The translations under genes and the position numbers were made by a program. 59,234 bases of DNA from a virus (taxonomy: Duplodnaviria; Caudoviricetes): positions 1 to 59,234 of the IMG/VR virus record IMGVR_UViG_3300046451_001045; one strand, 5' to 3'. Shown piece after piece: positions 36,445 through 45,851 of this stretch. Under the pieces are notes generated by a model. The model did not search any database, was not told where the DNA came from, and was given only the letters and a program-made list of their open reading frames with translations. The first letter of the stretch is position 1. Every line of letters starts with the position of its first letter.

Positions 36445-36471
36445 AAAGAGTGTTTCGGCACTCTTTTTTTT
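36445..36471 (+). terminator. Intrinsic terminator
   Basis: AAAGAGTGT-TTCG-GCACTC-T-run. Confidence 0.85.
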
Positions 36472-36506: not shown

Positions 36507-36803
36507 ATGGAAGAGATATTTGGTTTAATAGGTGAAGTCGGAGCCCCAATTGCAGGGTCAATCGTTATGGGATTTTTTATCTTCATAGTCATTAAGCAGA
36601 TACTTGAGGGTGTTGTTGACAGTATTGGTACACTAACCATGTTCTGTAAATCACTTGAGAATCGTGCTAGAACGATGTCGAACGAGATGATTAAGATTGA
36701 CTTACTAGTGTCAAGTGCATTAGAACTCAGACCCGACATCGATAGGATTGCAAGAGCCGAGAACTTCATCGAAGACGATAAACTCGATGTAAGAAGGGAT
36801 TAA
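36507..36803 (+). CDS. Single-TM coiled-coil protein heading the curli operon
   Basis: VGAPIAG TM helix; late element 5 nt before ATG. Confidence 0.75.
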   Translation: MEEIFGLIGEVGAPIAGSIVMGFFIFIVIKQILEGVVDSIGTLTMFCKSLENRARTMSNEMIKIDLLVSSALELRPDIDRIARAENFIEDDKLDVRRD

Positions 36804-37084
36804 TGGATATTGCATCTCTAATATCCGAATACGGATTTCCAATAGTCATGTCAGTCGGACTTGGCTACTTCATATATTACATATGGTGGTTTGTGGGTGA
36901 GAAACTAGAACCCCAAATTGAGAAGATGCATTTTGCACTAATAAAAGTAATAGACCAAACAAGAATGTTAGACCAAGATTTAATTCGTTTACAACAAAAA
37001 GTAAACGTAGTTCTCGAAATGAAGGAGAACTTAAAAAAAAGAGAGAATGAAAGAAATGCAAAAGATAACAACAGTAATAATTAG
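36803..37084 (+). CDS. Single-TM coiled-coil protein similar to the preceding gene
   Basis: YGFPIV TM helix; DQTRMLDQDLIRL parallels NRARTMSNEMIKI. Confidence 0.75.
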   Translation: MDIASLISEYGFPIVMSVGLGYFIYYIWWFVGEKLEPQIEKMHFALIKVIDQTRMLDQDLIRLQQKVNVVLEMKENLKKRENERNAKDNNSNN

Positions 37085-37517
37085 TGTTTGTTTTGCACTT
37101 AGTGTAAGTGCAGATGAAATAACATTCAAATTTAAGAGTCCTGCTTTTAGTGGGATAGGACAATCTGCACATTACTTGACAGTAGAGAATCAAGAGAAGT
37201 CAAGACGTGATAAGATTAGTCAAGACATAGAAGACAAGATTAAACAAGCAGAGAGAGAAGCAGAGAATACAACGCTTGCAAAATTCCTCAGAAATGTGGA
37301 AAGTAGAATTTATGCTCAGATAGCAAAACAGTTAGTAGAGAATATGTTCTCTAATGGAACTGCATCCGATTACGGAACATTCGCAATCGAAGGTAATACA
37401 GTTACTTATGAGAGAATGGTTGGAGAGGATGGAGTAGACTTCATTCGTTTAACAATCGTTTCTAGTGATGGTACAACAACAACTTTAGATATACCGATAG
37501 GTACAGGAAGTTTCTAA
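37047..37517 (+). CDS. csgF: Curli assembly protein CsgF
   Basis: Signal peptide then ITFKFKSPAFSG, matching the CsgF N-terminal F.F.NP.F.G pattern; ESRIYAQIAKQL; directly upstream of csgG. Confidence 0.85.
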   Translation: MKEMQKITTVIISVCFALSVSADEITFKFKSPAFSGIGQSAHYLTVENQEKSRRDKISQDIEDKIKQAEREAENTTLAKFLRNVESRIYAQIAKQLVENMFSNGTASDYGTFAIEGNTVTYERMVGEDGVDFIRLTIVSSDGTTTTLDIPIGTGSF

Positions 37518-38426
37518 ATGAGAAATTGGGGAATAGTCGGACTTATCGTCTTGCTCACCAGTGGGTGCGCAGCCATTCCATCTATGACCGACAGTTGTGA
37601 AGCTTTTGTTATGTCAAAAGTAGGTGAGTGTATTGAGAAGGCAGAAGTAGTTAAGATACCAACGTATCAAGAACTTGCAAATCTACCACCAGCAAAAGAC
37701 ATGCCAGTGGTTGCAGTATATGCTTTCATGGACAAGACAGGACAACGTAAGAGTAAAGATGGAATTGCATCTTTCTCCACTGCAGTAACACAAGGTGCAG
37801 AATCATTTCTGATTGATGCACTTAAGACTGCAGCGAATGGTAAATGGTTTAGAGTAGTAGAGAGAACAAGTTTGGATGCACTCGTAAGAGAGAGACAGAT
37901 TATTCGTTCTACTAGAGAAGATTTTGCAAATCAGAAAGGTAATGAAGACGCCCCAACGGGTATTCAACCTCTCTTATTTGCAGGCATCCTCTTAGAGGGT
38001 GGGATTATTGGTTATGACAGTAACATTGAAAGTGGCGGTAGAGGTGCAAGATATCTAGGAATAGGTACTTCTGTTTCTTACCGAAGAGATGTTATCACCG
38101 TCTCGTTGAGAGGAATCTCAACTTTAACAGGTGAAATATTATTGAATGTACAGACAACTAAAACAGTTCTCAGTACAGGCGGTGGATACGATGTGTTCAA
38201 ATTTGTGGACATGGATACGAAACTGGTGGAGATGGAAGACGGTAAGGCAGAGAATGAAGGAGTTACGAAAGCAACTCGTTCTGCAATTGAACTTGCAGTC
38301 TTAGAAATGATATACCAAGGACACGATAGAGGTTTTTGGGTAATTACAGATGGACATCGTCACCCTCATGGACAACATGGAAGGAACGAAGGTCATCTAA
38401 ACGGAGAAGAACATGACGAAGAATAA
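37518..38426 (+). CDS. csgG: Curli secretion channel CsgG (lipoprotein)
   Basis: Lipobox TSGC; VAVY.F.DKTGQ.K, FSTAVTQG, WFRVVER..LD.LVRERQIIR, EGGIIGYDSN..SGG.GARYLGIG. Confidence 0.95.
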   Translation: MRNWGIVGLIVLLTSGCAAIPSMTDSCEAFVMSKVGECIEKAEVVKIPTYQELANLPPAKDMPVVAVYAFMDKTGQRKSKDGIASFSTAVTQGAESFLIDALKTAANGKWFRVVERTSLDALVRERQIIRSTREDFANQKGNEDAPTGIQPLLFAGILLEGGIIGYDSNIESGGRGARYLGIGTSVSYRRDVITVSLRGISTLTGEILLNVQTTKTVLSTGGGYDVFKFVDMDTKLVEMEDGKAENEGVTKATRSAIELAVLEMIYQGHDRGFWVITDGHRHPHGQHGRNEGHLNGEEHDEE

Positions 38427-39147
38427 ATTATTACTCATTATGTTAACATTAGGAGTGACCAGTACTTATATGTTTGCAGCTGCAGACGACAATGAAATTT
38501 GGTTACAACAAAGTGGTACTGCATTAACATTGAACATAACTCAAAAAGGTTATGGAAACAAAGTTGGTGGAGATGACTTTAGTGGTTCATCAATCGATAT
38601 GATATTGACTGGTGCTACTAATAGTTTGACATTACTACAATATGGTGATGCCAATAAACTATACGGCCCTTTCATCGCAGATTTGTCTACAGTAAATTTA
38701 TCTTTTACTGGAAACTCAAATGTAATGGATTGGAATGTTGGTTATCAAGGAAGTGCAGATAGTTTAAATATGTTGGGTGTCATCACTGGTGACTCAAACA
38801 CATTTGATATAGACATCGGTTACGATGCATCTGCTGAATACTTAAACTGGGACTTGTCATTGACTGGTTCAAGTAACGTATTCACTACTAAAATTGATTC
38901 CGACAATGCTAAATGGGACTGGACTGTAACAGGTTCGTCAAATGACATCAATACACTTATGGCAGATGCTTCAGATAATTCATTAACTGCAGTTCTAACT
39001 GGTTCTTCAAATGATATCGACATCATTCAGAAGAGTGGTTCAGACACAGGTTGTCCAAGTGGTCAATCATGTAGTGGAATTATTGACGTATCCTTTGTGA
39101 CCTCTAATGCAAATATTGACATCGTTCAAAAAGACGATAACGATTAG
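38413..39147 (+). CDS. Secreted curlin-repeat (CsgA/CsgB-like) beta-solenoid protein
   Basis: Signal peptide; QxGxxN and TGxSN repeats with about 11/22-residue periodicity; C-terminal Cys pair. Confidence 0.75.
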   Translation: MTKNKLLLIMLTLGVTSTYMFAAADDNEIWLQQSGTALTLNITQKGYGNKVGGDDFSGSSIDMILTGATNSLTLLQYGDANKLYGPFIADLSTVNLSFTGNSNVMDWNVGYQGSADSLNMLGVITGDSNTFDIDIGYDASAEYLNWDLSLTGSSNVFTTKIDSDNAKWDWTVTGSSNDINTLMADASDNSLTAVLTGSSNDIDIIQKSGSDTGCPSGQSCSGIIDVSFVTSNANIDIVQKDDND

Positions 39148-40249
39148 TTTTGTACTTATTGGTTTAGTTACGGTAGCAGTAGCCGAACCAATAGGGACAA
39201 TCTCAGAACAAAAAGGTTTTGCTGGATTGCAGAGAGACGGAGAAACGTCTGTTATTTCTGCATCCGAATTTCCTGAAGTGTTGATGTACGACACTGCAAG
39301 AACGGAAAATGGACGAATGAAAATTCAGTTCACTGGTGATGAACAACTTGATTTAACCGAACACTCACTAGTGTTCATTGACGAGGTCTATTACGACCCC
39401 GACCCATCCCTATCTAAAATGTCAATCCGAATGGCACAAGGGACTGCAAGATTCGCTTCAGGATTTGGTGGAAAAATAAAGAAAAGTAACATAAATATAA
39501 CCACACCTACTGCACAGATTGCTGTTCAAGGAACAGACTTCACAACTAGTATTGATGAAATCGGAAGGTCACTGGTAATTTTACTTCCTGATAGATGGGG
39601 AGCTCCTTCAGGAAAAATTACAGTTAGTAATGCTGGTGGAATGGTTATACTGGATGAAGCGTATCAAGCAACGATGGTTTCAACGTATGACGACTCACCA
39701 ACGAAACCTGTAGTGGTTAATGGGATAACACCCAACCTAATTGACAATCTATTCATTGTCAGTCCCCCTGAAGAGGTAAATGAACAGGTTGCAGAAGAAC
39801 AGAGTAAGAATGAGAACGATTCAAACAATGTTCTTGATGTAGATTTCTTAGAGTTTAACGACTTGGAAGATGACTACTTTGAGGATGATGAATTAGAATA
39901 CACGGAACTCGACAGAGATTTACTTGATGTCGATTTTCTACAGGATTTATTAGATGTAGTGTTAGAGATTGACCGAAAGGTTGGTATCGATGCACAACAG
40001 AACACAGCCTTTGGAGTTGTCCGAATTGATGGAACACTTCCAGGCTTTGACAAGGACACCCAATACAATACTATTGTGGACAAGGGTGTAGGTCAGATAT
40101 GGTTCTACAGGGAAGTTAATGGTATTATTTCCATTAAATTACCAATGTTTGCACAAGCAAGTATCAGAACCATAACAGACGAGAAGGAATCACTAATTAA
40201 AGTGGGTGATGGTTCGTCTATAAATATAACCATCACACAACAAAACTAG
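39107..40249 (+). CDS. Exported FecR-domain protein with acidic linker
   Basis: Signal peptide; D..RTE.GR..I.F, G..RF.SG, ITTPTAQIAVQGTDF. Confidence 0.85.
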   Translation: MQILTSFKKTITISFVLIGLVTVAVAEPIGTISEQKGFAGLQRDGETSVISASEFPEVLMYDTARTENGRMKIQFTGDEQLDLTEHSLVFIDEVYYDPDPSLSKMSIRMAQGTARFASGFGGKIKKSNINITTPTAQIAVQGTDFTTSIDEIGRSLVILLPDRWGAPSGKITVSNAGGMVILDEAYQATMVSTYDDSPTKPVVVNGITPNLIDNLFIVSPPEEVNEQVAEEQSKNENDSNNVLDVDFLEFNDLEDDYFEDDELEYTELDRDLLDVDFLQDLLDVVLEIDRKVGIDAQQNTAFGVVRIDGTLPGFDKDTQYNTIVDKGVGQIWFYREVNGIISIKLPMFAQASIRTITDEKESLIKVGDGSSINITITQQN

Positions 40250-40259
40250 GAGATACTAT

Positions 40260-40409
40260 ATGAGTATTTGGAATAAATTCCGAGAATGGCATGAAGGACA
40301 AGTCTATGGATTTCAAAAAGCCTGCCGACTTGACGATTATGAGATGTTTATGATTGCATTTGGTGAAGGAATAGTTATGACATTATTATTTTTATGGTTG
40401 ATATTTTAA
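40260..40409 (+). CDS. Small membrane protein, 49 aa
   Basis: Late promoter at 40219, AGGAG SD; MSIWNKFREWHEGQ...LLFLWLIF. Confidence 0.6.
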   Translation: MSIWNKFREWHEGQVYGFQKACRLDDYEMFMIAFGEGIVMTLLFLWLIF

Positions 40410-40410
40410 A

Positions 40411-41079
40411 ATGAAAGATACTACACAGTTCGGTGGATTCTTATTTTTACTTTCCCTTATAGGATTGTGCTGGACTAGTGTAGCCTTTGCAGACGATAAC
40501 CATGTTCATGTAGAACAGGTTGATAGCGGAGAGGTAGACCTTAACATAACTCAAAAGGGTTACGACAACAAGGTTGATTTCTCATTTGCACACACTGGTA
40601 ATGAATTTAACTTCCTTCAAACAGGAAATGGAAACACTATTACTTGGGTCTCATTTTGGGGTTCAGGAAAAGGTTGGGGTGGTGATGTAGATGGTTCAAA
40701 CAACACCGAGAATGTATCACAAACAGGTGGTGCAACATATGGAAGACATATACTTGGTAACAGTAACACTGTAGACATATATCAAAGCGGAACTCATACA
40801 CATAACTTAGATATACATGTGAATTCTGTTGACCATGACTTACACCAATCGGGTAGTGGAACTCACTATAACCAAACATATTTCTATGGTTCTTCAGATG
40901 GGTCGAATACAAACATAATGCAAAAAGGTTCGGGAAACATGACTTCTCAAATAACATTAACAGGTTCTTATGCTACAACACTTAACTTGTTGCAAGATAG
41001 TTCCACCAATCAATCGTATACACTTACACAAAACTGCGTAACAGCAGGTGGATGTACAGTTTCAATGACACAAGAATGA
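40411..41079 (+). CDS. Secreted curlin-repeat (CsgA/CsgB-like) protein
   Basis: Signal peptide AFA|DDN; QKGYDN, QTGNGN, QSG, QKGSGN repeats; C-terminal CxxxxxC. Confidence 0.8.
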   Translation: MKDTTQFGGFLFLLSLIGLCWTSVAFADDNHVHVEQVDSGEVDLNITQKGYDNKVDFSFAHTGNEFNFLQTGNGNTITWVSFWGSGKGWGGDVDGSNNTENVSQTGGATYGRHILGNSNTVDIYQSGTHTHNLDIHVNSVDHDLHQSGSGTHYNQTYFYGSSDGSNTNIMQKGSGNMTSQITLTGSYATTLNLLQDSSTNQSYTLTQNCVTAGGCTVSMTQE

Positions 41080-41225
41080 ACGACCACTTAAAAACAATAG
41101 ACATGGGATATTTCAAACATCTATTTCATGCATGGACAATGGCATTTGCATTGTTAATACACGGAGTCTTTCCATCAGTATTAACTGATTATGCAAGTGA
41201 TAAGATGTGTGACCACAATGACTGA
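41076..41225 (+). CDS. Small protein, DUF6356-like, 49 aa
   Basis: HL....MGYFKHL..A......LIHGVFP.V....AS pattern; ATGA-coupled. Confidence 0.6.
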   Translation: MNDHLKTIDMGYFKHLFHAWTMAFALLIHGVFPSVLTDYASDKMCDHND

Positions 41226-41376
41226 AGAAAGAGAAAGAGTACTACAACTGGTAATTGATTACCGTAAGAAAAAACGACAACAGAAATGGAGTGCTATTTG
41301 GTCGGGAATCTTAGGAGTGTCTTTAATTCTAGTTGTTCTGTATATATTTTTCTTTGCCTGGCCAACAGTAGTTTAA
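41218..41376 (+). CDS. Small membrane protein
   Basis: Basic N-terminus then one TM helix. Confidence 0.55.
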   Translation: MTEERERVLQLVIDYRKKKRQQKWSAIWSGILGVSLILVVLYIFFFAWPTVV

Positions 41377-41394
41377 AATGACCTAAATAGTAGT

Positions 41395-41877
41395 ATGGCA
41401 TATTCTAAAGAAGTAGTACAAAGATTTGAGGCGGTCTTAGCAGACCCTAAAAAACATTCAGTCGGTTCACTCGACAGAAAGAACCCCAAGGTTGCAACAG
41501 GACTCGCAGGAGCTCCTGCATGTGGTGATGTGATGCAACTTCAACTATTACTCGATGACAACGAAAAGATTATTGACGTTAAGTTTAAGACTTACGGATG
41601 TGGAAGTGCAATTGCATCTTCTTCATTGTTTGTAGACATGATGATGGGTAAGACGATTGCAGAAGCAAAACTAATCAAAGACAAAGACATTGCAGAAGTA
41701 CTTCAACTTCCACCAATCAAATTACATTGTAGTGTACTAGCAGAAGACGCTATCAAACAAGCGATGGTAGACTATGAAACAAAACAGACAGATAACTATA
41801 GTCATCCAATCTTAGACCATTCCTTAATCGGTCATAATAATCCACCACCTCTATCAAAAGAAGATTTCATTGAGTAA
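41395..41877 (+). CDS. iscU: Fe-S cluster scaffold IscU
   Basis: GAPACGDVM, FKTYGCGSAIASSS, LPPIKLHCSVLAEDAI. Confidence 0.96.
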   Translation: MAYSKEVVQRFEAVLADPKKHSVGSLDRKNPKVATGLAGAPACGDVMQLQLLLDDNEKIIDVKFKTYGCGSAIASSSLFVDMMMGKTIAEAKLIKDKDIAEVLQLPPIKLHCSVLAEDAIKQAMVDYETKQTDNYSHPILDHSLIGHNNPPPLSKEDFIE

Positions 41878-41949
41878 TGAACTACAGTAGATACATTAAA
41901 AGAAGATACGGATTTCGTGAGATATACTTAGGACGAACTATAGATATCT

Positions 41950-43845
41950 ATGTATAGTTGGAAATCCGTTTTAGTAACTATTGTGTTACTATTTGGACTT
42001 AAAGTGTGGTCTCCATACATCGTAGAAAACATTCAGTGGTCATACTTTGACACACTCCACCAGTCTCAAGAAAAGGTGTTAGTAGATAACATCATATTAG
42101 TTGATATAGATGAAAAGAGTTTAGATGCATTCGGACAATACCCAATCAAACGTGGAATTTATCGTGACCTGTTACTTAACACTCATTTTAGTAATACCCA
42201 CGTCTTTACTTTTCTCTTTAGTCAACCCGATAGAGACCCGACCCAAGACGAGATACTTGCAGAAGGTTTGGTCAATCGTTTAACCATTCTTGCAGCTGCA
42301 CCAACAATTCAAAAAGATACTGGTTCTGCACCATTCGTAGGTAACTCTACATTTGGGGGTGGAAATCCTCAAGACCATTTGTGGAACTTCTCAGGGATTG
42401 CATCTCCAATCAGGATACTTCAGGACAATACATATGGTGTTGGGGTCACTGTTGCAACACCTAGTGTTACAGGAACACCTAACTTTGACGGGACAACAAG
42501 GTCTATACCCCTTTTAGTTACTGCAAACAATCAAGTATACCCGTCACTTGCACTAGAAACACTTCGTGCATTAAGAGACCAACCTTCGTATCAAACAAAA
42601 ATTACTCCTGAACTTGGAGTGGAATGGGTCAGGATGGGTAGAGACAAACCTATCTCCACCACCCCGACCAGTGATGTAATGATATCCTACTGGAATGAGT
42701 TCCAAAGGATTAGTGCAGTAGACCTACAGGATTCTAATGTTGAAGGTAAGATTCTTGTATGGGGTCTAACTGCGGAGGGTCTGAATAATCCAGTTTCAAC
42801 CCCAGTGGGTGTAATGTATCCTCACGAAGTGCAAGCACACCATATCCAAACCGTCTTGTCAGGAGTTCAAATACAGAAATCCTACTTTCTTGGATTAATT
42901 GGATTTGCTGTTCTTTTGTCAGTAATGATAATGATACTGGTGATGGTCTACAAGCTTCCCACAGCTCTTTCGGGGATAATGAGTCTATTACTCGTAGGAT
43001 TTCAGGTGGGTGGGAGTTATTATATTTGGACTTCAGAGCTCGTTCTTTTCGATACTTTCTATTCATCGTTAGCCTCCTTGTTGGTTTTTGGTCATGCATC
43101 CTTTAACAAATACTATGTAACTTTCCAAGAAAAGCAACAAATAAAGAAGCAGTTCCAAAAGTATTTATCCCCCGATATGATTGAAGAACTACAAAAACAC
43201 CCCGAAAAATTGAAACTTGGTGGAGATAGAAAGGAACTTTCATTCCTCTTCGCAGACATAGTAGGATTTACCCCCATAAGCGAGGCATACATGAAAAACG
43301 ATGACCCCGAGGGATTGGTCTTACTCATCAACAGATTCCTAGATGGAATGTCAAAGATAGTTTTAAAGAATGGTGGTACGATTGATAAGTTCATGGGCGA
43401 CTGTTTAATGGCATGGTGGGGTGCTCCTTTGGATTGTCCGAATCATGCTGAGATGGCAGTTAAATCTGCAATGGAAATAGAAATACTTACAGAACAGATG
43501 AATAGGGACATCAAGGAAGAAGGATTAGACCTTCCACCAGTAGTTATAGGTACTGGGATTAACACAGGTCAATGCATAGTGGGTAATATGGGTTCAGAAG
43601 ATAGGTTTGACTATTCAGTAGTCGGAGATGCAGTTAACCTTGCAGCCAGACTTGAGGTTCAGACTCGAACCTTTGATACACCTATTCTACTATCGGAGTT
43701 CACTTACATGCAACTCGATGAGACTGCATGTTCATTGGTTGATGAGATAACAGTAAAGGGTAAAGAAATACCAGTCAAGGTCTATGCACCATTGTTTGAT
43801 AACGGAAAACGAAAAGAAGTACGAAAACTTCATAAAACCCCTTGA
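41950..43845 (+). CDS. CHASE2-domain membrane class III adenylate cyclase
   Basis: IILVDIDEKSL...GQYP (CHASE2), three TMs, FADIVGFT, IDKFMGD, GINTG...VGNMGS..RFDYSVVGDAVNLAARLE, VKGK. Confidence 0.93.
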   Translation: MYSWKSVLVTIVLLFGLKVWSPYIVENIQWSYFDTLHQSQEKVLVDNIILVDIDEKSLDAFGQYPIKRGIYRDLLLNTHFSNTHVFTFLFSQPDRDPTQDEILAEGLVNRLTILAAAPTIQKDTGSAPFVGNSTFGGGNPQDHLWNFSGIASPIRILQDNTYGVGVTVATPSVTGTPNFDGTTRSIPLLVTANNQVYPSLALETLRALRDQPSYQTKITPELGVEWVRMGRDKPISTTPTSDVMISYWNEFQRISAVDLQDSNVEGKILVWGLTAEGLNNPVSTPVGVMYPHEVQAHHIQTVLSGVQIQKSYFLGLIGFAVLLSVMIMILVMVYKLPTALSGIMSLLLVGFQVGGSYYIWTSELVLFDTFYSSLASLLVFGHASFNKYYVTFQEKQQIKKQFQKYLSPDMIEELQKHPEKLKLGGDRKELSFLFADIVGFTPISEAYMKNDDPEGLVLLINRFLDGMSKIVLKNGGTIDKFMGDCLMAWWGAPLDCPNHAEMAVKSAMEIEILTEQMNRDIKEEGLDLPPVVIGTGINTGQCIVGNMGSEDRFDYSVVGDAVNLAARLEVQTRTFDTPILLSEFTYMQLDETACSLVDEITVKGKEIPVKVYAPLFDNGKRKEVRKLHKTP

Positions 43846-43875: not shown

Positions 43876-43951
43876 ATGGTGTTATAAATACCATTGTAAT
43901 GCTCATTAGAGGTTACATAACATAACTTGCTTAATAAAGGAGAAAACTATG
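43876..43951 (+). promoter_or_regulatory. ROSE-like RNA thermometer in the hsp20 5' UTR
   Basis: Two upstream hairpins, then CTTGCT (43926-31) pairing with SD AGGAG (43938-42) with a bulged G. Confidence 0.65.
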
Positions 43952-44386
43952 ACAAGCAGACAGCTCGGAGACTTCGATGTCTTCAATTTCGGGAAATCAT
44001 TCCCATTCGCAATCGGGTTCGACAGAACTCTTCAACTATTAGAACGTGCCAATCAGTCACCGACTAATACAAACTATCCACCTTACAATATTGTAAAACA
44101 CGATGCAGAGAACTTCAGTATCGAACTTGCATTAGCTGGATTTGATAAGAAAGACATCACAATCTCAAAAGAGAAAGAGGTTCTTAATATCGAAGGTAAA
44201 CAGAAGGAAGGGGAAAACCTTGAGTATGTCCATAGAGGACTTGCATCTCGTTCATTCAAAAGAACATTCACACTTGCAGACGATATAATCGTTAAAGGTG
44301 CAGATATGAAGAATGGTATTTTGAGTGTATCTTTGGAAAGGATTGTACCCGAAGAAGATAAACCCCAAGAAATCAAAATTTCTTAA
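43949..44386 (+). CDS. hsp20: Small heat shock protein Hsp20 (IbpA-like)
   Basis: IGFD, NYPPYNI, IELALAGF, HRGLA.RSF.R.F.L, NGIL...L....PEE.KP. Confidence 0.96.
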   Translation: MTSRQLGDFDVFNFGKSFPFAIGFDRTLQLLERANQSPTNTNYPPYNIVKHDAENFSIELALAGFDKKDITISKEKEVLNIEGKQKEGENLEYVHRGLASRSFKRTFTLADDIIVKGADMKNGILSVSLERIVPEEDKPQEIKIS

Positions 44387-44429
44387 AAAACCCCTATTCA
44401 GACATGCTTCATTGTTGTATAATAGAAGC

Positions 44430-45851
44430 ATGTCTGAACTCTATGAAATAATTAAACAAAGTGCAAATCACGATGGCTTACCTATTATTACAGGTAAACA
44501 GTTTGAAGACCTTACTGAAAAATATGGTCGGGAAGAATTCCGTGAACAAGTTGCAAAATACATTGAACAGGAAAGACCACCTTTCCCATTAAAACCCATT
44601 TCCTATGGTAAGATGAAAGATACTTTCATTAGACTTCTAGAGGACGATGTGTGGAGATTCGTAAAACCTAACGAACAGTTAGAACAGGAAGTCGTAGAAA
44701 AATACGATAATTACAAATACCCATACTCAGAATTTGGATTAGGAATGGTCAATGCACCCCCTTCATTTAATGATGCAAGTGATTACTTTATGCAAGACTT
44801 AAGATTGTCTTGTGATTCATATGGTCATAAAGCACCATTGAATGCATTCCGAGATTCAAATGCAAAACAATTGAAATCGGCTCTTGGTGCAATATGGAGA
44901 GGTGTCAATGACATTACTAAAGAAATATCTACAGACGTAGATGGTAATGAAGTTATAAAACTTGTCGGTGGTAAACTAGATGAAGATGCATATAGAACTG
45001 CATTCAGACTTGGTGCCTATATTGCAACACAGTTCAAACCAGTAGTTGCAAAATGTTTCTATGAAATGACTGATGCAAAAACTGTATTAGATACTTCATG
45101 TGGATGGGGAGATAGACTTTGTGGTTTCTATGCAAGTAAGAGAACAACTCATTACATAGGTACAGACCCAAATCCGAACACATTTGTAAACTATAAGAAA
45201 CAATGTATATCTTATGAAACAATTCTTACAGGTAATGCACCAGTAATTACTGAATCAGAAAACTACTTTAAATCCGTTGGTTCAAAGATTGTTGAAATAC
45301 ATAGATGTGGTGCAGAAGATTTAGACTATGATTCACTACCACCAATTGACTGTGCATTCACTTCACCACCTTATTTCTCGACAGAGATATATAACAAGGG
45401 TGGAGAACACGAGGAAGACCAATCATGGTTCAAGTTCAATGAGTATGAGAAGTGGAGAGATGATTTCTTCCTTCCAGTAAGTCAGAAGACTTTTGATTCA
45501 TTATCTGATACAGGTCATATGTTATTAAACATTATGAACCCAACAATTAAAGGTAAAACATACCCTTCATGTGATGAAGTGTGTGACTTACTAAGACCCC
45601 ATTTTAAAGGTCAACTGGGAATGAGAATTATGCAAAGACCACAATCATCTACTAAGTTTCTAGACAAGTGGACAGACGTAAAAGGTGATAGTGATGACAA
45701 TCAAGTGTCAGACAAGGAAGGTATTGATAGAACAGCTATGCAGGATTTCATGAAGAAGTATTACATGGAAAATGTTTGGTACTTTGCAAAAGAAGACAAA
45801 GACCTATTCTTAAAAGTAAGACAAGGACAACTAGATGAGTTTTTCGTATGA
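44430..45851 (+). CDS. DNA amino-methyltransferase (N4C/N6A type)
   Basis: SAM motif LDTSCGWGDRL and catalytic FTSPPYF; start at ATG 44430. Confidence 0.85.
   Translation: MSELYEIIKQSANHDGLPIITGKQFEDLTEKYGREEFREQVAKYIEQERPPFPLKPISYGKMKDTFIRLLEDDVWRFVKPNEQLEQEVVEKYDNYKYPYSEFGLGMVNAPPSFNDASDYFMQDLRLSCDSYGHKAPLNAFRDSNAKQLKSALGAIWRGVNDITKEISTDVDGNEVIKLVGGKLDEDAYRTAFRLGAYIATQFKPVVAKCFYEMTDAKTVLDTSCGWGDRLCGFYASKRTTHYIGTDPNPNTFVNYKKQCISYETILTGNAPVITESENYFKSVGSKIVEIHRCGAEDLDYDSLPPIDCAFTSPPYFSTEIYNKGGEHEEDQSWFKFNEYEKWRDDFFLPVSQKTFDSLSDTGHMLLNIMNPTIKGKTYPSCDEVCDLLRPHFKGQLGMRIMQRPQSSTKFLDKWTDVKGDSDDNQVSDKEGIDRTAMQDFMKKYYMENVWYFAKEDKDLFLKVRQGQLDEFFV

Follow-up and report, generated by a model that had tools for sequence, protein, structure and literature searches.

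A gene cluster for curli secretion has been described in phages of marine bacteria, at first in part (PMC7029224 and PMC9004378, both cited from excerpts of their texts) and then in a 2022 mSystems paper on pelagiphages (PMC9599517, cited from excerpts here and below), which reported a type VIII secretion system (T8SS) cluster in podo- and myophages that includes genes for a FecR protein, a "histidine kinase" and an adenylate cyclase. Genes of the cluster were found at all 65 ocean stations examined there, metatranscriptomes gave evidence of their expression, and phylogenies pointed to the Alphaproteobacteria, whose curli loci were noted to be without CsgE. The subject here is the corresponding cluster in a 59,234-nucleotide stretch of viral DNA (IMG/VR record IMGVR_UViG_3300046451_001045, a virus fragment about one third complete; this whole stretch is called the window in what follows), a relative of phages that infect SAR11 and OM43, which are among the most abundant marine bacteria. 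The window encodes homologues of CsgF, CsgG and two curlins, a FecR-domain protein and a class III nucleotide cyclase with a CHASE2 sensor domain. Comparison of these predicted proteins with their phage and bacterial relatives inclines us to the view that the FecR-domain protein couples the phage curli apparatus to the CHASE2 adenylate cyclase.

Because it was published in 2022 (PMC9599517), the gene cluster is not new, and the sequence-only reading of this DNA, which took the system to be undescribed, was mistaken on that point. The published cluster has the same genes in the same order as the window. It comes from marine myophages akin to Pelagibacter phage HTVC008M and Methylophilales phage Melnitz, and these two are also the named phages nearest to the window (cyclase 40% and 34% identical, respectively). 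The window differs in carrying an open reading frame (ORF) of 61 amino acids (aa) and an IscU gene between the second curlin and the cyclase; in addition, the excerpted paper calls one or more upstream ORFs histidine kinases, whereas S1 and S2, the two small upstream proteins of the window, have no detectable kinase domain, and may be those same ORFs. The module is real, strongly conserved and already described, and the mechanism put forward here, which is partly supported, goes beyond the published interpretation. In the excerpts of its main text, PMC9599517 treats FecR as an iron-dependent regulator and does not use the term CHASE2, and no paper that ties CHASE2 to the phage curli cluster was found among the main texts of open-access papers and bioRxiv preprints. 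What is added to the printed account is the CHASE2 assignment, counts of FecR-CHASE2 adjacency in bacteria, one bacterial copy of the whole module, and the co-divergence of the N-terminal domain of the FecR protein (FecR_N) with CHASE2.

Other described systems resemble the module in part. As in the Escherichia coli CsgBAC-CsgDEFG system, there are CsgG and CsgF homologues and two curlin-repeat proteins that profile searches relate to CsgA; unlike it, the phage module also encodes a FecR-domain protein and a CHASE2 cyclase, and CsgE (PF10627) gave no match at E values up to 1 in the 59 kb of the window, which make up roughly one third of the genome. The phage hosts are without curli genes according to the excerpted pelagiphage and Melnitz papers. 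A Burkholderia operon encoding a response regulator, a LysM-FecR protein, a CHASE2 histidine kinase and a DUF4136 protein (PMC5192318, in excerpt) also places an exported FecR-domain gene directly before a CHASE2 sensor, but in the window the output is a cyclase and not a kinase, LysM is absent and the pair is embedded in a phage T8SS cluster. The Sinorhizobium meliloti proteins CyaD1, CyaD2 and CyaK are likewise inner-membrane CHASE2 cyclases, and their activation by an external protein needs an outer-membrane partner (PMC13001267 and PMC7529298, in excerpt), which is the kind of trans-envelope logic put forward in the sequence-only reading; that partner is the beta-barrel NsrA and not CsgG, and the receptor Clr is known there. 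The FecA-FecR-FecI and PupB-PupR systems share with the window the fold of the PupR periplasmic domain, which contacts the outer-membrane transducer according to the title of a PDB entry, but the FecR protein of the window has neither the cytoplasmic anti-sigma domain nor the membrane anchor of FecR and PupR. With respect to Pycsar, the catalytic domain of the window cyclase matches the PADLOC models of PycC (1.6e-22, and 9e-29 for the cyclase of a bacterial locus, L084, discussed below), yet no paired PycTM was found in the window.

The module genes lie at 36.5-43.9 kb, all on the + strand, and the named ORFs are intact as judged from the ORF list and Pfam. Their order is S1, S2, CsgF, CsgG, RptA, FecR, RptB, the 61-aa ORF, IscU and the cyclase:

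36445..36466, + strand: terminator-like hairpin with a T run, from a consensus scan only; possible upstream boundary of the transcription unit
36507..36803, + strand: S1, 98 aa, paralogue of S2; hydrophobic segment at residues 11-29; phrog_18771 (unknown function), E 8.4e-24
36803..37084, + strand: S2, 93 aa, paralogue of S1; phrog_18771, E 2.5e-26
37047..37517, + strand: CsgF homologue; Pfam CsgF, E 5.9e-13, residues 9-150, 49.5 bits (cut-off 25.8); hydrophobic, signal-like N-terminus
37518..38426, + strand: homologue of the CsgG outer-membrane lipoprotein channel; Pfam CsgG, E 1.8e-48, 165 bits (cut-off 20.8)
38413..39147, + strand: RptA, conserved curlin-like repeat protein, by hhalign to the RptB family
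39107..40249, + strand: FecR-domain protein, predicted to be exported; Pfam FecR, E 1.4e-8, residues 62-153, 35.5 bits (cut-off 24)
40411..41079, + strand: RptB, hypervariable curlin homologue, by family profile against PDB sequences
41191..41376, + strand: 61-aa ORF with a C-terminal hydrophobic segment (by hydrophobicity); variable insert
41395..41877, + strand: IscU/NifU-type iron-sulphur scaffold gene; NifU_N, E 2.7e-38; TIGR01999 iscU, E 9.3e-49; variable insert
41950..43845, + strand: CHASE2 class III nucleotide cyclase, 631 aa; Pfam CHASE2, E 1.4e-29 (residues 10-324, 103.8 bits); Guanylate_cyc, E 2.5e-18

The sequence-only reading had placed an exported FecR protein between the two curlin genes and a complete CHASE2-class III cyclase about 0.9 kb after the second, and had picked out the cyclase motifs IDKFMGD, RFDYS and VNLAAR. 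All of this stands: the ORFs are intact and on the + strand, the gap between RptB and the cyclase (41079 to 41950) is 870 nt and is occupied by the 61-aa membrane ORF and IscU, and the three motifs are in the translation and align with catalytic positions of solved class III cyclases. A signal-like hydrophobic segment begins each of the five proteins CsgF, CsgG, RptA, FecR and RptB. CsgG also matches the NCBIfam CsgG model (E 1.9e-50, far below the equivalog cut-off of that model), and its N-terminal region contains LTSGC, which we take to be a lipobox.

The cyclase consists of an N-terminal hydrophobic segment (residues 7-25), the CHASE2 domain (about 22-312), a hydrophobic block from residue 313 and a catalytic domain (about 396-612); judged from these hydrophobic stretches, CHASE2 would be extracytoplasmic and the catalytic domain cytoplasmic. 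The latter aligns with Pseudomonas aeruginosa CyaB (3r5g, 7.6e-33) as well as with 6fht and 2w01, both derived from Cya2, and D436, D484, N563 and R567 fall on the metal-binding Asp pair, the transition-state Asn and the Arg of solved class III enzymes. A Lys/Asp pair specifies adenine in class III cyclases. At the position of K480, within IDKFMGD, the adenylate-cyclase variant 6fht likewise has Lys, and its guanylate-cyclase parent Cya2 (2w01) has Glu. Across 14 phage cyclases D436, K480, D484, R567 and E569 are invariant, and N563 and D554 are Ser in two, those of Melnitz and of a more distant phage contig, L080. The cyclase is intact, the adenine-specifying Lys/Asp pair is present, and the protein is a predicted adenylate cyclase. 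As a separate observation, in columns 400-600 of the phage cyclase alignment the catalytic sequence types do not track the CHASE2 types: the window cyclase groups with L008 in the catalytic part and with L014 in the CHASE2 part, a mismatch that points to recombination between the CHASE2 and catalytic halves of the gene.

The FecR protein has one hydrophobic segment (residues 11-29), a beta domain that begins at about residue 28-30, and a single Pfam match, the FecR domain; it is predicted to be wholly exported and to have no cytoplasmic anti-sigma part. A signal-like start and the lack of space for a cytoplasmic anti-sigma part rule out the mode of action of E. coli FecR for this protein. An AlphaFold model from a 31-row alignment (mean per-residue confidence, pLDDT, 69; 80-90 in both domains) shows the signal-like segment, a beta N-domain at about 28-210, an acidic disordered linker at 236-303 and a small beta C-domain at 304-380 (FecR_C). 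The one significant structural match of this model joins the N-domain to the C-terminal cell-surface signalling domain of PupR (6ovk_R; E 9.7e-4, probability 1.00, root-mean-square deviation 3.0 over 156 columns). Against PDB sequences the family profile matched only an antifreeze protein (2.6e-6, residues 26-97), to which no meaning is attached. A role as an iron regulator was rejected, as it is inferred from the family name alone and nothing else ties the protein to iron. Neither an extracytoplasmic function sigma factor nor a TonB-dependent transducer occurs among the module genes; the remainder of the genome was not searched for them.

The identity of the two repeat proteins needs more than one line of evidence. 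Both miss the Pfam Curlin_rpt cut-off (RptA E 0.13, RptB E 0.034), which is passed by homologues from HTVC008M and Melnitz and from one bacterial metagenome-assembled genome (MAG). The RptB family profile (35 sequences) finds the curlin-repeat protein 8c50_A (1.2e-8) and CsgA (8enq_A, 9.2e-6) among PDB sequences; the RptA profile finds no match there, and the RptA family aligns with the RptB family by hhalign (probability 99.6, E 2.9e-24). The RptB model is all-beta and confident (pLDDT 82, predicted template-modelling score 0.75), and a Foldseek search of the PDB with it gave nothing at E 0.001 or better, the weak rows being beta-helix proteins. Tandem Repeats Finder reported no repeats at 38300-41200; in nucleotide sequence the curlin repeats have diverged too far. 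The profile match, the hhalign result, the homologues above the Pfam cut-off and the RptB model together lead us to regard the predicted RptA and RptB proteins as curlin homologues. Position and co-divergence with CsgF fit a CsgB-like RptA, and RptB would then be CsgA-like. RptB is the most variable part of the module (mean pairwise distance 0.56), with distances uncorrelated with those of every other part. This variation resembles that of an exchangeable cassette, and the counterpart in HTVC008M, of 441 aa, has an additional PA14 domain (E 2.7e-6).

The arrangement is widespread among related phages. A scan of viral contigs with the cyclase gave 80 loci, 54-100% identical to the window, and CsgF, CsgG, RptA, FecR and RptB all lie on the same strand in 52 of the 53 that have at least 5.5 kb of upstream sequence. 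Scanning from the CsgG side, with an alignment of that protein, gave at least 589 matching stretches, and among the best 80 loci, which alone were used, a cyclase lies downstream in 32 of the 33 with at least 6.5 kb on that side; neither count consists of independent cases, because the loci of the two scans partly share contigs and come from one related phage group. An arrangement found again in dozens of divergent phage contigs is nonetheless far from a chance one. In HTVC008M and Melnitz, CsgF, CsgG, curlin, FecR, curlin and cyclase are contiguous and the cyclase abuts the second curlin. Between RptB and the cyclase, 70 loci show neither insert (30), the 61-aa ORF (26), IscU (12) or both (2), so that the 0.9 kb gap of the window is a lineage-specific insertion; the inserts come and go, and the RptB-cyclase linkage is kept. 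The IscU gene is probably an unrelated auxiliary gene; in related phages it is found either between RptB and the cyclase (14 of 70) or about 9-11 kb 3' of the cyclase.

In bacteria the FecR-CHASE2 pairing occurs on its own. The cyclase alignment was used to collect the 80 nearest bacterial loci, one genome per species, and neighbours were sought with hidden Markov models (HMMs) built from the phage proteins. A FecR-like ORF is found near the CHASE2 cyclase in 36 of the 80, which bears out the statement in the sequence-only reading that CHASE2 cyclases often neighbour FecR-domain genes in bacteria. Most of these (28) are directly upstream on the same strand, overlapping or at a gap of at most 107 nt; six adjoin on the other strand and two are 1.3-3.1 kb away. 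The FecR-positive loci include Rhizobiaceae, with FecR proteins of 1200-1400 aa, Ruegeria, Palleronia, Rhodospirillales, Elusimicrobia and others, and the FecR label requires nine changes on the cyclase tree. No T8SS genes are nearby in 35 of the 36. A different arrangement is seen in SAR86 and other gammaproteobacterial MAGs (L089-L119), a clade whose CHASE2 cyclase has no FecR neighbour and in which a DUF481 gene overlaps the 3' end of the cyclase in 10 of 10 tested loci (for example L092:12078-12869).

The remaining locus, L084 from a Caulobacteraceae MAG, is the single bacterial locus with the whole module: CsgF, CsgG, two curlins, FecR and CHASE2 cyclase. Its flanks are bacterial (glycosyltransferases, an S9 peptidase, a TonB-dependent receptor), with a GC content of 52-55% in the cluster and the 8 kb of bacterial genes that follow it and of 63-67% in the left flank. 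Its cyclase and the phage cyclases group in one clade with 100% local support (FastTree), and when 401 genomes of the class and 301 of the order were sampled, its FecR had a full-length match nowhere but in its own genome. The L084 cluster is rare, and may itself be a transfer. It qualifies the statement, in the excerpts of PMC9599517, that FecR and cyclase stand outside bacterial T8SS operons.

The third line of evidence is co-divergence. Matrices of pairwise domain distances were compared for 73 distinct phage loci with all six genes (84 before duplicates were removed), a set that leaves out HTVC008M, Melnitz and the bacterial loci. CHASE2 distances correlate with those of FecR_N at a Spearman coefficient of 0.70, with those of CsgF, CsgG, RptA and FecR_C at 0.50-0.54, with those of its own catalytic domain at 0.59 and with those of RptB at 0.11. 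When loci were bootstrapped (500 draws), the lead of FecR_N over CsgF, CsgG, RptA and FecR_C was never reversed, and that over the catalytic domain was reversed in 1%. In partial Mantel tests, which are liberal for related sequences, FecR_N retained r 0.47 with CHASE2 after control for all other parts (0 of 499 permutations), and CsgG, CsgF, RptA and FecR_C gave -0.08 to 0.08; after thinning to 49, 34 and 24 loci the FecR_N-CHASE2 value was 0.41-0.45 (0 of 299 permutations each). In a partial-correlation network the only ties of CHASE2 are with FecR_N (0.44) and with the catalytic domain of the same protein (0.45). FecR_N is tied in turn to CsgF, CsgG and RptA (0.22-0.28), as is FecR_C (0.29-0.33, with RptA at 0.33), RptA is tied to CsgF (0.26), and RptB, which lies between FecR and CHASE2 on the DNA, is tied to none. 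Within the T8SS block, FecR alone co-diverges with CHASE2 in these distance-matrix comparisons. Such a network would be expected of a FecR protein that joins the secretion block to the sensor, and it also fits RptA as a conserved nucleator and RptB as an exposed, exchangeable subunit.

Could the FecR-domain protein, then, be the link between fibre and cyclase? Bacterial adjacency, the PupR-like fold and co-divergence indirectly favour a FecR-to-CHASE2 relay, which might work as follows. A T4-like marine myophage would express a block of envelope proteins in a host without a curli system of its own. CsgG and CsgF would form an outer-membrane secretion channel, through which RptA (conserved, CsgB-like) and RptB (hypervariable, CsgA-like) would be exported to give a surface fibre. 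FecR would serve as the bridge: both its C- and N-domains would go with the CsgF/CsgG/RptA block, and the N-domain, with its PupR/FecR-type periplasmic signalling fold, would pair with CHASE2 in the periplasm. The cyclase, in the inner membrane, would then set cytoplasmic cyclic AMP (cAMP) according to the state of the secretion apparatus, or according to something that reaches it. Here we infer the physical binding, the direction of signalling, the cue, the in vivo product and a cAMP reader. A complex prediction for CHASE2(22-318) with FecR(27-380) scored 0.00, which is no answer and speaks neither for nor against binding.

A broader form of this proposal can be offered as a tentative possibility, and one we would not expect to hold in full: FecR-domain proteins may be general periplasmic input partners of CHASE2, which in this case wire a pore and a fibre to a cyclase, so that the phage builds a trans-envelope sensor that turns a surface or secretion event into cAMP, with RptB as its exchangeable, exposed input. 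Such a sensor might be used, for instance, in lysis timing or in a response to superinfection. To our knowledge, the ligands of CHASE2 sensors have never been identified. If the relay from FecR to CHASE2 is true, it would give a first handle on what these domains sense, and would mean that a phage installs a complete envelope-spanning sensory device in its host.

Several observations weigh against the relay. The co-occurrence check proposed by the sequence-only reading came out strongly in favour of linkage in the two phage scans, with the partial sharing of contigs noted above, but the linkage is not obligatory. L080 has an RptB-like gene and a cyclase, with no CsgG in the whole 25 kb record and no FecR; in the locus L186, which has a T8SS and FecR, no cyclase lies within about 10 kb; and the podophage clusters of PMC9599517, as excerpted, have FecR and no cyclase. 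In bacteria, 44 of the 80 nearest loci have no FecR-like neighbour by phage-derived HMM (six of them have no upstream flank), and nine neighbour ORFs from seven of these loci gave no FecR in Pfam, three being without any family. In S. meliloti, the neighbouring FecR-domain protein SMc02177 is not needed for perception of the plant signal (PMC5498481). A mirror-tree signal can be mimicked by shared recombination blocks or shared rates. On the output side, no cyclic nucleotide monophosphate (cNMP)-binding domain (PF00027) was found in the window or in five related phage records, two of them complete genomes, and the literature gave nothing usable on cAMP receptors of SAR11. The relay envisaged in the sequence-only reading keeps its conserved module, bacterial adjacency and co-divergence, and the absence of a cNMP-binding domain from the window and these five records counts against it.

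What else could account for the cluster? FecR might be purely a T8SS accessory, a periplasmic adaptor or chaperone in place of CsgE/CsgC, and the cyclase an independent host-takeover gene that adjoins the cluster. The CsgE result for the window, the ties of FecR_N and FecR_C to CsgF, CsgG and RptA (partial r 0.22-0.33), the presence of FecR without cyclase in L186 and in the excerpted podophage clusters, and that of cyclase without FecR in L080 are all as this would have it. It leaves unexplained that the strongest partial correlation of FecR_N is with CHASE2 (0.44-0.47), despite FecR_C and RptB in between on the DNA, that FecR-like genes flank bacterial CHASE2 cyclases where T8SS genes are not nearby (35 of 36), and that the adjacency to the cyclase is kept over 34-100% sequence identity, and we consider it unlikely, if the most serious alternative. 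The idea in PMC9599517 (in excerpt) reverses the order of events: cAMP made in response to a periplasmic cue would switch on or tune the curli genes, with FecR as an iron-linked component. The excerpted paper draws an analogy with the control of curli by cAMP and CsgD in Gammaproteobacteria, and a T4 late-promoter-like motif, TATAAATA, stands 190 nt 5' of RptB. But no cNMP-binding or CsgD-like regulator was found in the window and the five phage records (CsgD itself was not searched for), the FecR protein has a signal-like start and no space for a cytoplasmic anti-sigma domain, and its tie to iron is the family name, so that regulation in this direction seems to us improbable.

Equally doubtful, in our judgement, is the proposal made for Melnitz (PMC9004378, 2022, in excerpt) that the CsgGF pore is a lysis-timing device. 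On that account CsgG and CsgF would be a repurposed pinholin- or secretin-like pore for lysis timing or uptake, there would be no fibre, and the cyclase would be incidental; the excerpted main text makes no mention of FecR or the cyclase. The authors saw infected cells unclumped and argued from structure models and synteny, and in the window an endolysin-like gene lies 2.3 kb 3' of the cyclase. Yet the conserved module includes two curlin homologues that begin with signal-like segments, and the statement in the excerpts that Melnitz lacks csgA and csgB conflicts with the authors' own GenBank annotation ("curlin associated repeat protein") and with Pfam, where both Melnitz proteins score above the cut-off. 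Finally, the module could derive from, or work like, a bacterial surface-triggered cyclic-nucleotide defence, with a product that may gate a membrane effector and not a transcription factor. In L084 a gene for PycTM, a Pycsar effector family, follows about 440 nt after the cyclase (L084:12464-13057; Pfam E 8.8e-25, PADLOC E 9.6e-18), and the catalytic domains match PycC models as given above. Any class III cyclase matches those models, however, and none of the other 161 loci searched for PycTM (PF18967) had it, nor did the window or the five phage records; an L084-type FecR, moreover, occurs in one of 401 and one of 301 sampled genomes, each time that of L084 itself. We hold such a derivation or mode of action to be highly improbable, and the single PycTM beside the L084 cyclase is a lead only. 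The coupling of the curli apparatus to the cyclase by FecR is the reading to which we return.

Further features of the module and its surroundings can be added. The pair S1 and S2 (BLASTP of one against the other, E 9e-9), both hydrophobic at the N-terminus, stands directly 5' of CsgF in 129 of 134 loci, a single member in four and none in the bacterial L084, and the two belong to the phage module. S1, S2 and the 61-aa ORF gave nothing above noise in Pfam and PADLOC, and an atlas search with S1 returned viral hypothetical clusters only. Apart from the hairpin upstream of S1, the only + strand terminator-like site up to the cyclase stop is a single weak 5-pair stem at 39235-39250, inside the FecR ORF. 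Metatranscriptome contigs from four runs in four studies, at 95% identity or more, cover parts of every module gene, including 42055-42237, 43173-43535 and 43215-43460 of the cyclase; such libraries can contain DNA, contigs cannot show a transcript and uncovered stretches are uninformative, so that this cover is consistent with the expression published in PMC9599517 (in excerpt) and is no proof of transcription.

The neighbourhood consists of T4-type replication genes, namely those for the sliding clamp, both clamp-loader subunits, the RegA translation repressor and DNA polymerase. In L080 (L080:5187-7951), whose cyclase is 54% identical and has the Ser-for-Asp and Ser-for-Asn substitutions in common with Melnitz, thymidylate-synthase-like and deaminase-like genes, judged from translations only, lie upstream on the opposite strand. 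In the window an Hsp20 gene (43949-44386, E 2.7e-18) comes next after the cyclase, as in most related loci, and it is preceded by a sigma-70-like promoter match (11/12) and a TATAAATA motif. It is followed by an ORF of 508 aa (44325-45851) with a weak N6_N4 DNA methylase match (E 3.9e-5, under the cut-off). The T4 late-promoter-like TATAAATA has 11 copies in the window, all on the + strand, against 4.7 expected, a number reached in 0 of 100 shuffles.

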